Shown: positions 27,725 through 48,921 of the stretch, in pieces
Position numbering within the stretch: position 1 is the first letter of the stretch
How the letters are laid out: the number at the start of each line of letters is the position of its first letter
Virus record (IMG/VR): IMGVR_UViG_3300021961_000062
Span: 1 to 64,000 of that record
Length of the DNA stretch: 64,000 bases
Origin: an uncultured virus (IMG/VR IMGVR_UViG_3300021961_000062)
Lineage: Duplodnaviria; Heunggongvirae; Uroviricota; Caudoviricetes
Strand: one strand, 5' to 3'
Program-made: the position numbers and the translations under genes
The notes under the pieces: model-generated
Databases searched by the model: none
What the model saw: the letters and a program-made list of their open reading frames with translations, nothing else
Told to the model about the DNA's origin: nothing

Positions 27725-29998
27725 ATGAAATTATTAGATATCATATTGGAGAATAAAGTACCATCAGATCAGATGGAACAGGCCAGTCTCCTAAAAAACT
27801 TATTTAAAAACTCTACGAAGAATTTATCGGTTTTAACCCATGACGGATTAAAGGCGGTCGATTCTGTTTTAGCGAAAGACATTAAAGCCGTTTTTAAATC
27901 AAGAACCATAACTGGAGTGAAGAATCTTGATGATTTAGTTGTACAGATGTCTAAAGGAACACTTTCAGCGAAAGGTGCTGGGGATTTAGCCGTTGGTTTA
28001 CTAAAAACAAAAGGAGTTAGTTCCATACAAATTAGACAAGTTGCCACTCAGTGGGTAGAACAACCCGGATTCATAAAAGCATGGGCCTCTAGAGGAAAAA
28101 ATCCAACAGTTAAGGAGTTGATGGCATCGGGTAAAGGTTATACTGAGGACGCGGCGAAGGAGATTGTTGCGGCATGTAAAAAGAGTAATAAATTCCAAAA
28201 CAGCATTAAAAACGTAACAGGTACGACGGGTAAAACAGGTGCATCTACAGGTAAAACAGGCGCATCTTCAGGTAAAGGTGGGACACCAAAACCTGGAGGA
28301 GCAGGATCGGTACCTCCGATATCAACATGGCAAAGAATTAAAAACGCGGCAAAATCACCAGGAAAGACCTTAATTAAAGGTGCGACCAAGGTGGTTAATG
28401 TTGCTAGAAAAGGTTATAGAAGTTATGGTTTTATAAAATTAATGACTTGGTTGGCGGTATTTGGTATTGGCGGAATTATGTTATACGATTTATGGAAAAA
28501 ATTAATTGGGGGGTCTGACACAATTCCAACCGACGACGAATTAAGAAAAATGGACGATTGGGTAAATTGTATTTTAAAACCTTTACAGGATGATGATGGC
28601 GCTGAGATTGTTGAGGCAGGTGATGAAGTAGGTTTGAAATACAGTATCGCCGAATTAGGTGGTGTGGAAACTGGTGGACACGTTATTTTCTATTCAGACC
28701 ATACTATTAAATCCGCTAACGGTAATACAGGAACGTGGTCATGTAATCAAGATGGATTACTAAGCGAACAGCAGTCAGAGGGTGGTGGAGAATTATCCGC
28801 AGCTCAGTTGAGTGCAGTAATTGACGAATTAGACGATCAACTTAGTGGTGATTTCTTTGAGTCTGACAGTACCGATATGATGGATGCTCTTAATGCGTTA
28901 AGAGGGGTTGTTGGTAAAACCTATAAAGGAAGAGATGCTATCGAGATCCTTAAGATAAACTACCCCAAAGTAGTTGGTATGTCCTTAGAACAACATGTTA
29001 ATGAATTGACCAATTTAGACTTCGAGGCAATTGAGGCGAAAGAAGATTTCTTAAATATTTTGAGATCATCAAACTCAGGTGGGGGTCAACAACAATCGGG
29101 CGATTCTGATAATGCAGATACTTCACAGGGAGACGGAAATCCAAACACAGGACTTTCACATCTTACCATCACATGGGATTCCGCGGATAATGGTGGTGGA
29201 GGCGGAGGAGGAGCCATTATAGATAATTCAAACATCAAATTCAAACCATGTGGAGATTTCCCATTTGATTTGGGTTGTATTAGTGACAAAATTAAAGAAT
29301 TACAGACATGTTTAAATAAAACAGGATCAGTCCTCAAAGTAGATGGTTACTACGGTAAAAAGACACACAAAGATCTTTTAGATATGGAAATGTTCGCTGA
29401 TGGGGACTCTAACGATACTATCATCACTAAAGTAATGTTTGACAACTTCATGAAGAGGTGTGATGATAATAATACTATTGTGACAACTGGAGATACAACC
29501 ACAACTTCAGGAACGACCACAGGTGATACAGCTACCGTTTCGGGGTCAACTACTGATGACACCACTCAAACAGTTGAGGTACCTGTATTGGATACAAGGG
29601 CAATGATTGATAAGTTCGGTGCTGAAAGATTGGAAAACATCAAAAAGATGACAGTCGACGGTAAAGTAATCAACGATATAATGGAAGACTATTTAGACTT
29701 TAGAAGTGGTAAATACGTTCTTAAAGGTGAAGTTGAGTTAACCGAGAATCAGTTATATGCAATTAATAGAGTAATGTCAGGTAGAGGTTATGTTTTCTTA
29801 AAAGATAAGGAAAAGGCCAATGACCAAGGTGAAGTAGTATTCTCAAAATATGTATGGGTGGCTGATAGAACATTAGATAATAAATCCAGAAGAGAGATTA
29901 GACGTACCGCACGTTCTAACGAAAGAGCGGGTAGAAGAATCGATAGAGCTCAAGACAGATTAGATAATTTAAAAGCACAAACTTATGATGGTCAATAA
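27725..29998 (+). CDS. Large putative virion protein with TM helix and PG-binding-like motif
   Basis: MKLLDIILE leader; TM LMTWLAVFGIGGIMLY; LQTCLN...LKVDGYYGKKT; TATTTAT 27705-27711. Confidence 0.55.
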   Translation: MKLLDIILENKVPSDQMEQASLLKNLFKNSTKNLSVLTHDGLKAVDSVLAKDIKAVFKSRTITGVKNLDDLVVQMSKGTLSAKGAGDLAVGLLKTKGVSSIQIRQVATQWVEQPGFIKAWASRGKNPTVKELMASGKGYTEDAAKEIVAACKKSNKFQNSIKNVTGTTGKTGASTGKTGASSGKGGTPKPGGAGSVPPISTWQRIKNAAKSPGKTLIKGATKVVNVARKGYRSYGFIKLMTWLAVFGIGGIMLYDLWKKLIGGSDTIPTDDELRKMDDWVNCILKPLQDDDGAEIVEAGDEVGLKYSIAELGGVETGGHVIFYSDHTIKSANGNTGTWSCNQDGLLSEQQSEGGGELSAAQLSAVIDELDDQLSGDFFESDSTDMMDALNALRGVVGKTYKGRDAIEILKINYPKVVGMSLEQHVNELTNLDFEAIEAKEDFLNILRSSNSGGGQQQSGDSDNADTSQGDGNPNTGLSHLTITWDSADNGGGGGGGAIIDNSNIKFKPCGDFPFDLGCISDKIKELQTCLNKTGSVLKVDGYYGKKTHKDLLDMEMFADGDSNDTIITKVMFDNFMKRCDDNNTIVTTGDTTTTSGTTTGDTATVSGSTTDDTTQTVEVPVLDTRAMIDKFGAERLENIKKMTVDGKVINDIMEDYLDFRSGKYVLKGEVELTENQLYAINRVMSGRGYVFLKDKEKANDQGEVVFSKYVWVADRTLDNKSRREIRRTARSNERAGRRIDRAQDRLDNLKAQTYDGQ
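28225..28276 (+). repeat. 21-nt tandem repeat encoding TGKTGAS linker
   Basis: GGTAAAACAGG(T/C)GCATCT twice plus a partial third unit. Confidence 0.7.
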
Positions 29999-30644
29999 TA
30001 TTGAAAGTATAGTTAAAAAGACATTAAATGAGAGATATGAAATAAACAGATCTCTACGTCTTATCATTGAAAATGAAGAAACTTCTGATGATGAAAAATT
30101 AGATGGTGTACTTGATGCACTCATGGCATTATCAGATGAGGGTAAATCTGAAGAGGAGATAGAAGGGTCATTGGACGAGAGCATTACTGGTTGGTTAACA
30201 AAAACATTTGGACTGGGTAATGACAAATCTTCGGATGGGGGAGGTGACACCTCTCTTTCTTTGGGTAACTTGGGTTCTAAAGCAGGATCTGGAGTGTTTT
30301 CACAAATGAGAGAGTGGTTTATCAGAAAAGGTTTAGGATTTTTAGGTTTTGAGGGAGCCCTGGCCGACGCTATGGCGGCGATGTTTGCTGATTTAGATAT
30401 AAGAGCAATAATCGCATTGTTCAGAGGTGGTAATGCTTGTCAACAGTACGGTGATCAAATTGCCGATGCGATCCTCGAAGGTATTGGTACCTATGTTATG
30501 GGTGGTGCCGAAAATAACAGTATGGCACAAAACTTACTTAGAAATATGGTATTTGAATTTGAAAAATCATCTCAAATCGGTGAGATTATTGCTAGTAAAG
30601 TGTGTAGTTTCAATGTGAGGGGAGCACTGACAAATTCAATTTAA
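29985..30644 (+). CDS. Putative virion protein
   Basis: Last gene of the late operon; overlaps the previous stop. Confidence 0.5.
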   Translation: MMVNNIESIVKKTLNERYEINRSLRLIIENEETSDDEKLDGVLDALMALSDEGKSEEEIEGSLDESITGWLTKTFGLGNDKSSDGGGDTSLSLGNLGSKAGSGVFSQMREWFIRKGLGFLGFEGALADAMAAMFADLDIRAIIALFRGGNACQQYGDQIADAILEGIGTYVMGGAENNSMAQNLLRNMVFEFEKSSQIGEIIASKVCSFNVRGALTNSI

Positions 30645-30664: not shown

Positions 30665-30694
30665 AAATGACCCTCCAAGTGAGGGTCATTTTTT
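30665..30694 (+). terminator. Intrinsic terminator
   Basis: AAATGACCCTC-CAAGT-GAGGGTCATTTTTT. Confidence 0.85.
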
Positions 30695-30715
30695 GTTTAT
30701 GAGATATTTATTAGT

Positions 30716-30818
30716 ATGAGATCAGTACTTTGGTCGGTACTCGGTTGATAAACGAAAATAACGAAAAGGAGGTGTTACTTATCTCGGCAAAGGGGTCATT
30801 GACCTCTTTGTTCGTTTA
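30716..30818 (+). ncRNA. Candidate late small RNA A carrying an extended Shine-Dalgarno and a 10-codon mini-ORF (30716-30748)
   Basis: TATTTAT 30705-30711, AAAGGAGGTGTT 30765-30776, closing hairpin 30786-30812. Confidence 0.55.
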
Positions 30819-31080
30819 CGACTTTTTGAAGTTCTTTAATCGCCTTATCCTTCAAACTTTCCTCCACTAATGACTCTTCTATTTTATATTTTTTCTTATA
30901 TCGTTCTTCAAAAGAGGATCCCACTCCGATTTCTAAAATTTCCGCATCGTTTGGTATTAGAGGTTTCCTCTTCCCCATATCAATGACATCATCGACTAAG
31001 ATGTCGTGAAAAACTTTCAGGTTTAGTTTTTCCTTCTTTCGATATATTGTTTTATAAACTACAACTACAGGTGGTTTCAT
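30796..31080 (-). CDS. Hypothetical protein
   Basis: TATTTAT 5 nt upstream (31086-31092). Confidence 0.55.
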   Translation of the reverse strand: MKPPVVVVYKTIYRKKEKLNLKVFHDILVDDVIDMGKRKPLIPNDAEILEIGVGSSFEERYKKKYKIEESLVEESLKDKAIKELQKVVNEQRGQ

Positions 31081-31093
31081 ATCATATAAATAG

Positions 31094-31119
31094 AAAAAAG
31101 GGATCCGAAGATCCCTTTT
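31094..31119. terminator. Terminator downstream of tmRNA
   Basis: AAAAGGGATC-CGAA-GATCCCTTTT. Confidence 0.8.
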
Positions 31120-31531
31120 GGTGGAGGTGGCGGGGTTCGAACCCGCGTCTTGTTCGTCCCAACCATAAAGGACTACACGTTTAGGTTAAGGTTTTTCATA
31201 CCTTCCAAAATATTTGGTTCCTATTTTGACATTGTTACCAACAACTGTGTCGAGTTCACTTTTAATAAGGTAGTACTCTGAACGAGACCTTTGACACTCC
31301 AAGTGGTATCACACTATAAGACTTCTGTTCCAAGGTACATGTCCACCGACCCGTCGTAGGAATAACCTTAGGCTACTGCTACTTTAGAATCAACAGATAC
31401 GAGACCCATTAATTCCATTTGTGAATAAACGTTGCCGTCTAAAAAAACGTCACCATAGATTAAAGTGATAGGAAACATCTCACTACGTGCCCCGTATGAC
31501 TGACTACGCCAATCAATGCCATGTCACCCCC
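31119..31531 (-). ncRNA. ssrA: tmRNA
   Basis: 5' GGGGGTGAC, 3' GCGGGTTCGAACCCCGCCACCTCCACCA with G3.U alanine pair; internal tag frame 31436-31368. Confidence 0.92.
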
Positions 31532-33789: not shown

Positions 33790-33792
33790 ATT

Positions 33793-33868
33793 AGGTTGAG
33801 GTAGGAATCGAACCTATCACGTCACGTCCCGTGTTTGCGGGATTGCTCTACCACTGAGCTACTCAACC
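33793..33868 (-). tRNA. Atypical tRNA with non-canonical anticodon loop
   Basis: Canonical acceptor stem, D arm and T loop; anticodon arm TCCCG-CAAACA-CGGGA has no U33. Confidence 0.65.
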
Positions 33869-33875
33869 CGTTTGA

Positions 33876-37015: not shown

Positions 37016-39031
37016 TTAAATGAGGGGAAGATTTTTGGAAATTTCCAAATTCCCCTCTTTTATTTTTAACAAGATCTCCACATTTTCTACAATATTACCC
37101 ATCAAAATTTCATCACTTATAAAATCTTCACATAGATTTTGAATAATTCTTTTGATTGGTCGGGCACCATACTCTTCCTCAGAATTAAGTTTCAAAATTT
37201 CGTCATAAACGGTTTTGTCAAAAGTTATTTTATAAGAATTCTCGTTTAACCTATTAATTAAAGACTGTAGTTCAATCTGTACGATTTTTCTTAGAGATTT
37301 ATCATCTAACTTGTTGAAGACGATTATATCATCTACCCTATTTAAGAATTCTGGTGAGAATTGTTGCTTCAAAGACTTCTTTATAATTGAATCTCTTACT
37401 TTTTCTTGGTTATTATCGTTTGTGAACCCGACACCACCACCAAAATCAGATACTTTCTTAGCACCAATATTTGATGTCATAATAATCAGAGTGTTTGTGA
37501 AATTAACTTTCCTACCAAAAGAATCGGTTAAGTGACCTTCATCCAAAATCTGTAGTAGAATGTTAAAGACATCCTTATGTGCCTTTTCAATTTCATCAAA
37601 TAAAACAACGGAGAATGGATTGTTTTTTATCTTCTCCGTCAATTGACCACCTTCGTCGTATCCAACGTACCCGGGAGGAGACCCAATCAAACGAGAAACA
37701 TTATGTTTTTCCATAAACTCACTCATATCGACCCTAATAATTTTTTCAGGATCCCCAAAAAGTGTTTTAGCTAATGTTTTGGCTAAGTGTGTTTTACCAA
37801 CACCGGTAGATCCTAAAAACATGAATGACCCAATGGGTTTATTTGCGTTTTTAACACCGACTCTGTTTCTTCTTATTGATTTTGAGATTTTAGAAACCGC
37901 ATCGTCTTGACCAATAACATTTTTAGAGATGGTTTTTTCTAACGATAATAAAGATTTACTTTCTTTGGTGTCCAATTTTGAGATTGGTACTCCCGTCATG
38001 GAGGTAATGAGATTATAAACATCCTCAACACTAATCTCTTTTCTGTTTACTTGTTGTTCGTCGTTCCATTTTTTCTTTTCTGACTCCAACTTTTTGAGGA
38101 CCTTCTTTTCTTCATCTCTGAGTTGTGCCGCCTGTTCATAGTCTTGACTTTTTACGACCTCTAATTTTCTTGTTTTGATTTTCTCCGATTCCTTTTTTAA
38201 CTTCTCAATAGAGTCGGGAATCTTCACATTTATTTTTTTCTCAGAACCTAATTCATCCAAAACGTCAATCGCCTTATCGGGAAACTGTTTATCAGTAATA
38301 TATCTTTTACTAAGGGATACGATAGTTTCGATAACATTAGAATTATAAGAAACCCTGTGAAACTCCTCATATGAAGGTTTTAAGTTGTAAAGAATATCAA
38401 TTGTTTCATCCACAGTGGGTTCGTTAAGTATAATTTTTTGAAATCTCCTTACCAACGCACCATCTTTTTCAATGTTCTTTTTGAATTCATCAAATGTTGT
38501 GGCACCAATACATTGAATTTCTCCTCGAGCCAATGCGGGTTTTAAAATATTCGCAGCATCCATAGACCCCGACGCATTACCCGCACCAACCATAGTGTGA
38601 ATTTCGTCTATAAAGACAATTACGTTTGGGGCTTCCTGTAGTTCATTTAAGATAGCTTTAATTCTCTCTTCAAACTGTCCCCTATACTTTGTACCTGCAA
38701 CTAAAGATGTGAGGTCTAAGGACATTATTCGTTTATCCAGTAGATTGGTGGGACAGTTACCGTTTGTAATTAGTAGGGCTAACTTTTCTACTAACGCAGA
38801 TTTACCCACACCCGCGTCACCAACGATGACAACGTTATTTTTCTTTTTCCTTGATAGTATTTGGGCTATTCTCATAACCTCCTTACCCCTACCTATGATA
38901 GGATCTATCAACCCCTCACTCGCCAATCGAGTGAGATCCCTTGAGAAGTTATCGAGTACTGGTGTATTAGACCCTCTCTTACTTTTTCTCTGTTGTGATG
39001 GTGACCCACCTTCAAAAAAATCCACGGACAT
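37016..39031 (-). CDS. clpC: ClpC-like AAA+ unfoldase lacking the N-terminal Clp-repeat domain
   Basis: Two AAA+ modules (GDAGVGKS, GSTGVGKT), pore loops KYRG/GYVG, UVR domain QDYEQAAQLRD, VGF ClpP-docking loop. Confidence 0.9.
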   Translation of the reverse strand: MSVDFFEGGSPSQQRKSKRGSNTPVLDNFSRDLTRLASEGLIDPIIGRGKEVMRIAQILSRKKKNNVVIVGDAGVGKSALVEKLALLITNGNCPTNLLDKRIMSLDLTSLVAGTKYRGQFEERIKAILNELQEAPNVIVFIDEIHTMVGAGNASGSMDAANILKPALARGEIQCIGATTFDEFKKNIEKDGALVRRFQKIILNEPTVDETIDILYNLKPSYEEFHRVSYNSNVIETIVSLSKRYITDKQFPDKAIDVLDELGSEKKINVKIPDSIEKLKKESEKIKTRKLEVVKSQDYEQAAQLRDEEKKVLKKLESEKKKWNDEQQVNRKEISVEDVYNLITSMTGVPISKLDTKESKSLLSLEKTISKNVIGQDDAVSKISKSIRRNRVGVKNANKPIGSFMFLGSTGVGKTHLAKTLAKTLFGDPEKIIRVDMSEFMEKHNVSRLIGSPPGYVGYDEGGQLTEKIKNNPFSVVLFDEIEKAHKDVFNILLQILDEGHLTDSFGRKVNFTNTLIIMTSNIGAKKVSDFGGGVGFTNDNNQEKVRDSIIKKSLKQQFSPEFLNRVDDIIVFNKLDDKSLRKIVQIELQSLINRLNENSYKITFDKTVYDEILKLNSEEEYGARPIKRIIQNLCEDFISDEILMGNIVENVEILLKIKEGNLEISKNLPLI

Positions 39032-39220: not shown

Positions 39221-39601
39221 ATGATTACTTTACTTAAAAACGATCCGTTTTTTACTAACTTATTAGATTTGGTTTTCGATGCTGAAGATGAAAATTTATG
39301 GAAAGGTCATGTACACGTACATAAGTCTGTTAATGATGAGGGTATTACCTTAGAGTTTATTGTTCCAGGTTTAACAAAGGAGGATGTTTCAATTCTTGCT
39401 GAGGACAGAGTGTTGAGGATTGAGTATTCGCCCGATGAAGGGAAGAAGAATAAATTTGTGGGGTCGTTCCGAAGATCATACACTATGGGTGACGATTTAG
39501 ATAATAAAAAGGTCGAAGCCAAACTTGAGAATGGGATACTGACAATTAATATTCCAAAACTAAAAAAGAAAAATACTCAAAGAAGTATTTCAATCAACTA
39601 A
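39221..39601 (+). CDS. Small heat-shock protein (Hsp20)
   Basis: VPGLTKEDV, SFRRSY, AKLENGILTINIPK, C-terminal IxI. Confidence 0.92.
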   Translation: MITLLKNDPFFTNLLDLVFDAEDENLWKGHVHVHKSVNDEGITLEFIVPGLTKEDVSILAEDRVLRIEYSPDEGKKNKFVGSFRRSYTMGDDLDNKKVEAKLENGILTINIPKLKKKNTQRSISIN

Positions 39602-48598: not shown

Positions 48599-48624
48599 AA
48601 AGGTGTCATTAGACACCTTTTTTT
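48599..48624. terminator. Bidirectional intrinsic terminator
   Basis: AAAGGTGTC-ATTA-GACACCTTTTTTT. Confidence 0.85.
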
Positions 48625-48814
48625 ATTTCTGTTCTTGGTCTTTTAATTGTTGAATGTACTGAGCCTTCTTTTTTTGAAGTCTACGGGAAACTGACGGTTT
48701 AGTGAATTCTTGACGATCTCTAAGGAATTGGACTTGTTTCGTATTCCTAACTTTAGTTTTTAATTTTTTAAGGGCTTGATCGATGTTCCCGTTGAAGACT
48801 TTTACTATTAGCAT
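48623..48814 (-). CDS. rpsU: Ribosomal protein bS21 (phage-encoded)
   Basis: MLIVKV..NIDQALKK.K.K...LRDRQEFTKPSV.RR...KAQY; 63 aa from ATG 48814; TATTTAT 48837-48843. Confidence 0.9.
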   Translation of the reverse strand: MLIVKVFNGNIDQALKKLKTKVRNTKQVQFLRDRQEFTKPSVSRRLQKKKAQYIQQLKDQEQK

Positions 48815-48921
48815 ATTTGTTTTTAGTGTTATATACATAAATATATCAAAAAAATTTGATTTAGAAAATATTTTTAGTTATCTTTTATAGACACCATAAA
48901 AGTTAATAAGAATGAAAATAA

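Follow-up and report, generated by a model that had tools for sequence, protein, structure and literature searches.

In Bacteroidota, the 3′ tail of 16S rRNA is buried by bS21, bS18 and bS6 and becomes accessible only where a subunit lacks bS21; such bS21-lacking ribosomes with a free tail are the main readers of the ribosome-binding site of rpsU, by which bS21 is restored (PMC9976891). An extended helix is needed for this, and the rpsU SD is exceptionally strong, with a pairing energy below −13 kcal/mol; the authors speculate that rpsU autoregulation is a counter-defence against the swap of bS21 by phages (PMC9976891). Phage bS21 has retained the aromatic residue responsible for burying the tail (PMC9723584), and the bS21 of Bacteroidia holds the tail as a single strand, with no duplex (PMC9976891, PMC9723584). 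The bS21 of H. halodurans binds, in a sequence-dependent manner, an SD/anti-SD mimic in OLE, a Bacillota RNA of about 600 nt that carries the anti-SD itself (PMC12054373).

Here we describe a new family of RNAs that sequence comparison shows to be widespread among giant lake phages with Bacteroidota hosts; it lies outside Rfam 15 and has a defined fold and strand, no coding capacity and a conserved complementarity to the 16S tail. It was found in a phage contig from IMG/VR (75,233 bp; GC 35.6%; CheckV completeness 24%), the first 64 kb of which are the stretch analysed here (the window); a 183,758-bp contig also contains this stretch. The RNA shares with the Flavobacteriales rpsU site (PMC9976891, PMC7797042) the GAAAGGAGGU motif, the spacing to a P-site triplet and the complementarity to the 16S tail. 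In Flavobacteriaceae, where the closest bacterial relatives of the window's own bS21 are found (59% identity), rpsU reads GAAAGGAGGU with AUG 7–10 nt further on, and its complement to the tail has a median of 11 nt (20 loci with GGAGG). The phage RNA differs in having AUC and never AUG (59 of 59 distinct members), no ORF, its own phage promoter and a place within a three-way junction that follows a conserved 5′ hairpin; it has a longer complement (median of 13 against 11 nt) and is encoded by the phage, far from the phage's SD-less bS21 gene.

With P6 of OLE the phage RNA has in common that it is non-coding, that an SD-like strand is paired internally to an anti-SD-like strand and that there is a link to bS21 (PMC12054373). 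In the phage RNA, however, it is the SD side that is the perfect match, reaching beyond the helix, whose other strand is merely anti-SD-like; the two RNAs have no sequence or Rfam relation. Decoys that mimic a nucleic-acid ligand include 6S RNA (for RNA polymerase) and CsrB/RsmZ (for CsrA). Their logic, an untranslated mimic of a binding site that titrates the binder, is the one proposed below for the phage RNA, but the proposed target is an rRNA tail reached by base pairing and no protein, the RNA is phage-encoded and, unlike CsrB/RsmZ, it has a single SD-like site and no set of GGA repeats in hairpin loops. Full-text literature searches and passages on bS21 phages, rpsU regulation and OLE (PMC9723584, PMC9976891, PMC7162821, PMC12054373) yielded no mention of such an RNA, and the words tmRNA, small RNA, non-coding, promoter and intergenic are absent from PMC9723584.

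Architecture of the RNA gene

The RNA locus lies in a gap of 151 nt between a rightward gene of 219 aa (29985-30644) and a leftward ORF of 94 aa (ending at 30796). The 219-aa gene is followed by an intrinsic terminator (30665..30691, + strand; a stem of 11 pairs with a 5-nt loop, then TTTGTTT), which sets the RNA gene apart as a separate unit. Two relatives recovered through the 94-aa ORF (L004 and L005) have a hairpin in the same place with a different sequence, and the terminator is kept as a structure but not in its sequence. Next comes the promoter-like box GATATTTAT (30703..30711, + strand), of the promoter element type of this phage. Both elements had been picked out by an earlier, sequence-only reading of this DNA, and the box lies at a constant distance also in family members recovered by patterns that did not require it. 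The contig has 29 copies of ATATTTAT, 18 of which sit 4–41 nt upstream of the start of an ORF on the same strand; copies precede the terminase and portal genes among others, which makes late expression of the RNA plausible.

Phage genes are SD-less: GGAG, GAGG or AGGA is found at −20 to −4 in 5 of 97 ORFs, in line with what had been read from a sample of gene starts. In several genes (e.g. 20767, 32716 and 30796-31080 (−)) the ATG lies merely 4–6 nt past a TATTTAT box; this spacing is found in five genes of this phage and suggests leaderless or near-leaderless late mRNAs.

The predicted RNA of about 105 nt (30716..30820, + strand; predicted ends) has a covarying 5′ hairpin, P1 (30720..30746, + strand), which carries a conserved 8-nt loop, UUUGGUCG (30729-30736). 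It is followed by AAAGGAGGUGUU (30765..30776, + strand), the complement of the 16S 3′ tail, the family-wide core of which is AAAGGAGGU; as DNA, AAAGGAGGTGTT at 30765-30776 is a single copy in the whole 75,233-bp contig. The observation that this SD has no start codon behind it stands, as the window copy has no ATG, GTG or TTG at SD spacing and AUC is found 8 nt past GGAGG. This AUC, at the place of a start codon, belongs to AUCUCG (30781..30786, + strand), which pairs with GAGGU (30769-30773) to form P3. The closing hairpin described earlier is P4 (30786..30812, + strand), terminator-like and covarying, with UCGUUU (30812-30817) after it, a potential partner (P2) for the AAACGA that precedes the SD; P4 is absent from the output of a simple terminator scan. 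The RNA gene thus consists of a promoter box, a 5′ hairpin with the loop UUUGGUCR, AAAGGAGGU, AUCUCG 6–12 nt further on and a terminator-like hairpin.

The covariance model (R1) matches the window once, at 30703-30823 (+), with 92.5 bits and an E-value of 4.4e-15, such E-values being rough. Folding of the stretch gives an MFE of −38.1 kcal/mol (z −3.35), and none of 200 shuffles was equally stable. The product would be a non-coding RNA, stably folded and some 105 nt long, transcribed rightward from the TATTTAT promoter class of the phage and ending at P4; its transcription and timing, like the binding and the consequences considered below, are what we infer from these data. The convergent 94-aa ORF (30796..31080, − strand) has its own TATTTAT box and its stop codon inside the P4 loop. 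It stands beside the RNA in the subclade of the window only (L004, L005 and the identical contig) and has no Pfam or PHROG match; remoter homologues (41%) occur in other viral contigs (L006-L011).

Conservation, fold and strand

Within the single genome, the motif is no more than what chance would give: the 9-mer AAGGAGGTG occurs twice in the window against 0.5 expected, 7 of 100 shuffles reach two, and the SD site ranks joint third in duplex energy among all 20-nt windows of the contig (bulges allowed). Chance is ruled out because the unit is conserved across relatives. The RNA unit of the window is 93% identical to that of L004 and 90% to that of L005, where the flanking proteins are 76% and 69% (94 aa) and 47% and 69% (219 aa) identical. 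A scan of IMG/VR with AACGAAAAGGAGGTGT returned 81 stretches, mostly ordinary RBSs of unrelated phages, with the full architecture in 24 distinct sequences. A covariance model was built on 62 distinct members, and it matched in 88 of the 100 sources searched, giving 59 distinct sequences, the window's included, and 87 IMG/VR loci besides the window; metagenomes hold at least 74 loci of family members. The unit of promoter, SD and hairpin that the sequence-only reading had predicted for related bS21 phages was thereby found; bS21 is present in 25 of the 36 searchable records of RNA-bearing phages, and in 7 of the 8 whose completeness is 54% or more.

No Rfam 15 family reaches its gathering score on the unit. 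At E-values up to 10, eight of the nine matches listed fall on the upstream terminator, and the ninth, Phe_leader on the − strand across the unit, has 14.9 bits against a gathering score of 55. Cultured relatives were sought in 50,697 GenBank phage records, which gave no match. A host origin was considered as well; the covariance model has no match in 151 sampled Bacteroidota genomes, an absence that by itself proves little.

Retention of the SD was followed with patterns that do not require it, each forcing another part of the sequence. A 5′-only pattern (promoter box plus P1 loop) returned 100 stretches, 70 of them unique, of which 12 are chance matches with no other features of the family; in the remaining 58, which have the family architecture, the motif is present in all (55 GGAGG and 3 GGGGG, the latter still able to form a G-U pair with CCUCC). 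A 3′-only pattern (AUCUCGRCAA plus UUUGUUCGUU) gave at least 118 metagenome loci, at least 74 of them family members with at least 65 distinct sequences; among the 65 distinct members listed, 64 have GG[AG]GG and one has GGAGAG. This retention indicates that the SD is under selection in the RNA family. The downstream element, not part of the search requirements as far as AUCU is concerned, is constant as well, with ATCT in 59 of 59 and ATCTCG in 57 of 59 members, and the spacer from GGAGG to AUC measures 6–12 nt (8 nt in 37 of 59). The GGAGAG variant (L359, a metagenome contig with two copies) keeps P3 and pairs more weakly with the common tail. With the natural tail variant GAACAUCUCC it would form an 11-base pairing if one G is bulged, which perhaps reflects adaptation to hosts carrying this form of the tail.

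The RNA family has no conserved ORF. That the unit is a tiny mRNA, in which the SD drives initiation at a near-cognate AUC, or in which the 5′ ATG, 4 nt past the box, yields a 10-residue peptide, is very unlikely in our judgement. The distance from SD to AUC is indeed that of a start codon, and the five phage genes with an ATG 4–6 nt past the box lend the second version some precedent; from AUC, however, a stop is reached in 35 of 59 members and none in 24, the peptides agree over their first five residues only, which are encoded by the conserved RNA motif, and the loops contain indels. A single extra base that L004 and L005 have directly after GGAGGTG shifts any frame relative to the window. 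The mini-ORF that had been presented as part of the unit (MRSVLWSVLG, 10 codons; ATG 30716, stop 30746-30748, + strand) does exist in the window but is not a family feature: only 3 of the 59 members have it, and L004 carries ACG in place of its ATG. A non-stop message feeding the phage tmRNA was rejected as well, given the in-frame stop in 35 of 59 members.

MAFFT and RNAalifold alone recovered the fold in part; the structure was therefore drawn up manually and then refined by refitting to the model, and as the alignment is fitted to the structure, the following pair counts lean towards it. P1 shows two-sided changes in all nine pairs (95% of cells paired) around invariant loop columns, and P4 in 5 of 11 pairs (97% paired). 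P2 (AAACGA/U(C/U)GUUU) is weak, with 80% paired. P3 (GAGGU/AUCUC), five pairs of which one is G-U, is paired in 99% of cells with no covariation and both strands near-invariant, so that the half-buried state of the SD foreseen by the sequence-only reading is predicted in nearly all members; the alternative foreseen there, an exposed loop on a TAAC/GTTA stem, is confined to the window and unconserved. For the whole fold, 93.4% of cells are paired against 38–56% with slid partners, and 134 double-change cells compare with 42 in shuffles. In ensemble folding the median unpaired probability is 0.22 for GGAGG, mostly in P3, and 0.90 for the AAA preceding it; an open AAA next to a closed GGAGG would suit a toehold in this model.

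Since the 253 G-U cells fit the + strand (93.4% pairing, against 79.8% on the − strand), the RNA is assigned to the + strand. The − strand had been considered as a mimic of the 16S 3′ end (AAGUCGUAA...hairpin...AACACCUCCUUU) and was rejected, both the G-U pairs and the promoter indicating the + strand. The same cells bear on the view that there is no RNA gene at all and that the conservation reflects a DNA-level feature or a mere terminator of a convergent intergenic region. The site does lie between convergent genes in the window, with the stop codon of the 94-aa ORF inside P4, but most relatives lack an ORF on the other side, the G-U cells would not pair if the other strand were the transcript and would have no meaning for duplex DNA, and the promoter box is fixed in place and orientation. 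The RNA is moreover about 80% identical where the protein of the 219-aa gene (p219) is about 35% identical, a conservation far above that of the neighbouring proteins, and we regard the DNA-level explanation as barely credible.

Elements conserved besides the SD are the loop UUUGGUCR, GAUAA and AUCUCGRCAAAG. A pseudoknot between the P1 loop and CGRCAAA was considered and set aside, as the variable positions permit U-A and U-G alike, and searches of 16S rRNA and tmRNA for complements of the P1 loop, GAUAA and AUCUCG returned only 6- to 7-mers of chance size. Many members (L087, L226 and L278 among others; 30712-30728 in the window) start with AGAGUUUGAU, ten bases of the 16S 5′ end; as this arm covaries with its P1 partner, the likeness is probably chance.

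Complementarity to the 16S tail

The 16S 3′ end of Leeuwenhoekiella reads ...GGAACACCTCCTTT|CT (in a longer form GGCTGGAACACCTCCTTT|CT), and the Bacteroidota tail quoted in the sequence-only reading is correct for this genus. Each of the 59 distinct members was placed on the tail in the SD register. Offsets −3 to +5 (AAAGGAGGU) are Watson–Crick to the tail in 56–59 of the 59. Beyond this core, U stands at +7 in 56 members and at +8 in 46, and C or U at +9 in 56 of 59; because these bases match, the complement extends into GAAC, the start of the free tail, and it takes in the entire single-stranded tail. The GTT extension noted early on in the window is thus borne out across the family for its two U positions and only in a minority for its G: at +6, 24 of the 59 members have G, 32 have A and 3 have U. 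The three U members have an inserted base that shifts the register; members with an inserted base (GGAGGUUGUUCC, GGAGGAUGUUCC) retain GUUCC. The A that faces +7 is a typical feature of tails in Bacteroidota. At that place most other bacteria have GAUCACC, which makes the U at +7 lineage-specific.

With the best-fitting natural tail, uninterrupted Watson–Crick pairing extends over a median of 13 nt (range 9–16 nt), counting the central G-U of GGGGG members as paired. The duplex energy against a 16-nt tail is −13.6 kcal/mol or lower in all 59 members (median −20.6 kcal/mol), computed with bulges allowed and so differing from the exact measure of PMC9976891.

The natural tails themselves vary at the base that faces +6. 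In a 16S tail scan of 401 sampled Bacteroidota genomes, 73 gave a match, with GAACACC in 37, GAAUACC in 30 (both in two), GAAAACC in 9 and GAAGACC in one; a reversed control gave about 23 matches, and the GAAAACC and GAAGACC tails may be chance. Four U-variant sites that were fetched are true 16S 3′ ends, and among named genomes the U variant is found in a Saprospiraceae MAG. The Bacteroidota 16S 3′ tail is thus polymorphic (GAACACCUCC, GAAUACCUCC and GAACAUCUCC), the last form, seen in five Flavobacteriales MAGs, altering the anti-SD core itself.

For 32 members the best tail is the U tail, for 23 the C tail, and for 4 both are equal. The G/A state at +6 changed at least eight times on a weakly resolved RNA tree built without the tested columns. 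The covariation with host 16S tails that had been predicted is seen at the population level only, at which the two alleles of +6, the one variable position within the complement, match the two natural variants GAACACC and GAAUACC. Such a match could arise by chance fairly often because both variations are transitions; moreover, rpsU of Leeuwenhoekiella has A at +6 while its own tail has C, so that an SD can evidently work without a match at +6. An attempt to assign hosts by way of phage bS21 was abandoned, since the bS21 sequences of G-type and A-type phages resemble one another and carry no host signal.

Possible function and genomic context

We give roughly even chances to the proposal that the RNA imitates the ribosome-binding site of rpsU and, as a decoy, traps 30S subunits whose anti-SD is free. 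Its middle would copy the initiation region of host rpsU, the single strong SD site retained by Flavobacteriales, in a longer form, AAAGGAGGU(G/A)UUC, with AUC in place of AUG. Starting from the unpaired AAA and opening the weak P3, it would pair with the whole free tail and occupy free-tail subunits without being translated; host rpsU mRNA would be starved of subunits, and phage bS21 rather than host bS21 would fill the ribosomes. Several points weigh against this. Predicted folds keep GGAGG mostly closed in P3 (0.22 unpaired), the invariance of GAGGU and AUCUC can be accounted for by P3 with no ribosome involved, and conservation outside the SD is left unexplained by a decoy. As phage bS21 keeps the tail-burying aromatic residue (PMC9723584), most ribosomes would be blind to the RNA, and any benefit must come from a minority of subunits.

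More tentatively, and with clearly less confidence than in the decoy itself, the RNA may be the missing half of a takeover by phage bS21. By pairing with about 13 bases of the free tail, it might pull the tail from the pocket of bS21, bS18 and bS6, or hold it after host bS21 has left, block the host's only SD-dependent message (rpsU) and clear the site for phage bS21, the G/A switch at +6 tracking the C/U polymorphism of hosts. If so, the RNA would be a host-range determinant written in an RNA–rRNA duplex.

The predicted closure of GGAGG in P3 also feeds the main competing explanation, in which the RNA binds bS21 itself (of host or phage, perhaps with bS18 and bS6). P3 would then be a copy of the SD/anti-SD duplex as in P6 of OLE, and the RNA would either soak up host bS21 or hold phage bS21. 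The analogy with OLE, whose mimic is bound by H. halodurans bS21 (PMC12054373), is joined here by the 99% pairing of P3 with both strands near-invariant, by the likeness of AUCUC to the anti-SD (the natural tail variant GAACAUCUCC contains AUCUC), by the retention of P3 in the GGAGAG variant and by the presence of the RNA in bS21-encoding phages. We nevertheless hold this binding to be unlikely: it leaves unexplained the invariant unpaired AAA 5′ of the helix, the complementarity of (G/A)UUC to GAAC/GAAU and the restriction of +6 to two bases that fit the tail, the bS21 of Bacteroidia holds a single-stranded tail (PMC9976891, PMC9723584), and P3, with five pairs, one of them G-U, never covaries.

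The phage bS21 gene (48623..48838, − strand; PF01165, 47.7 bits) lies between the portal and protease genes, 18 kb from the RNA, and is without an SD. Gene order in the window is terminase, portal, bS21 (on the reverse strand), protease and major head protein, the order described for bS21 phages of freshwater Bacteroidota (PMC9723584). Nearer to the RNA is a phage tmRNA gene (31119..31531, − strand; Rfam, 79.9 bits), a conserved convergent neighbour. At 23 of 53 loci, ARAGORN detects a tmRNA no more than 1.5 kb away; the Rfam model scores over threshold in 30 of 36 records, with a weaker full-length match in three more, and in these 33 of 36 records the tmRNA is always convergent, 33–2371 nt past the 3′ end of the RNA. 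The order of the block around the RNA is kept (219-aa homologue, RNA, tmRNA, glycosyltransferase), and because the whole block is syntenic, the linkage of the RNA with bS21 and tmRNA may reflect nothing more than common ancestry.

This neighbourhood is one reason to consider that the RNA is structured for some other role (a partner of the tmRNA system, a scaffold for phage proteins or a regulator that pairs with another CCUCC RNA), its likeness to an SD being a by-product. Such a role would account for the conservation of UUUGGUCR, GAUAA and AUCUCGRCAAAG, which a decoy does not explain, and the acceptor strand of the convergent tmRNA (33 of 36 records) reads CA(C/U)CUCC. Pairing with that strand was tried and rejected: GGAGGUG fits CACCUCC in the window, but GGAGGU(G/A) shows no covariation with it in a comparison of 19 phages, and the AAA finds nothing to pair with in the tmRNA, as ACCA follows CCUCC. 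Nor does the tmRNA of the window contain a complement of seven or more bases to the P1 loop or AUCUCG, and a median complement of 13 nt to one host RNA, with matching alleles, is hard to obtain as a by-product. We consider a role of this kind improbable.

Two open questions are touched by the family, namely why Bacteroidota keep an unused anti-SD and why many aquatic phages carry bS21. For both, the RNA offers a concrete and testable object, a natural, conserved and untranslated "super-SD" from bS21 phages. Binding of the tail, if true, would be direct evidence that bS21-free ribosomes are a battleground between phage and host and would provide a ready probe for free-tail ribosomes, and a decoy acting on ribosomes would be a new viral way of steering translation. 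We know of no other viral RNA that targets the anti-SD; if it does bind the tail, this one would be the first.

The tRNA/tmRNA island shows further features of its own. Phage tmRNA tags differ from the usual ...ALAA, with VDSKVAVA assigned by ARAGORN in the window and GNVYNNMEVAGILATSNVAVA or ...ATSKVAA in relatives (L014, L047, L214 and others). ARAGORN misses several tmRNAs that Rfam detects (e.g. L212), and SmpB is found in merely one of five large records. Within an array of nine tRNAs, ARAGORN labels the one at 33792-33869 (−) tRNA-??? and gives it an anticodon of two bases, "aa"; its Rfam score is only 38.8 bits. By the island lie genes for a ClpB-like double AAA+ protein (37016-39031 (−); PHROG 4871, E 4e-239) and for Hsp20 (39221-39601 (+)).
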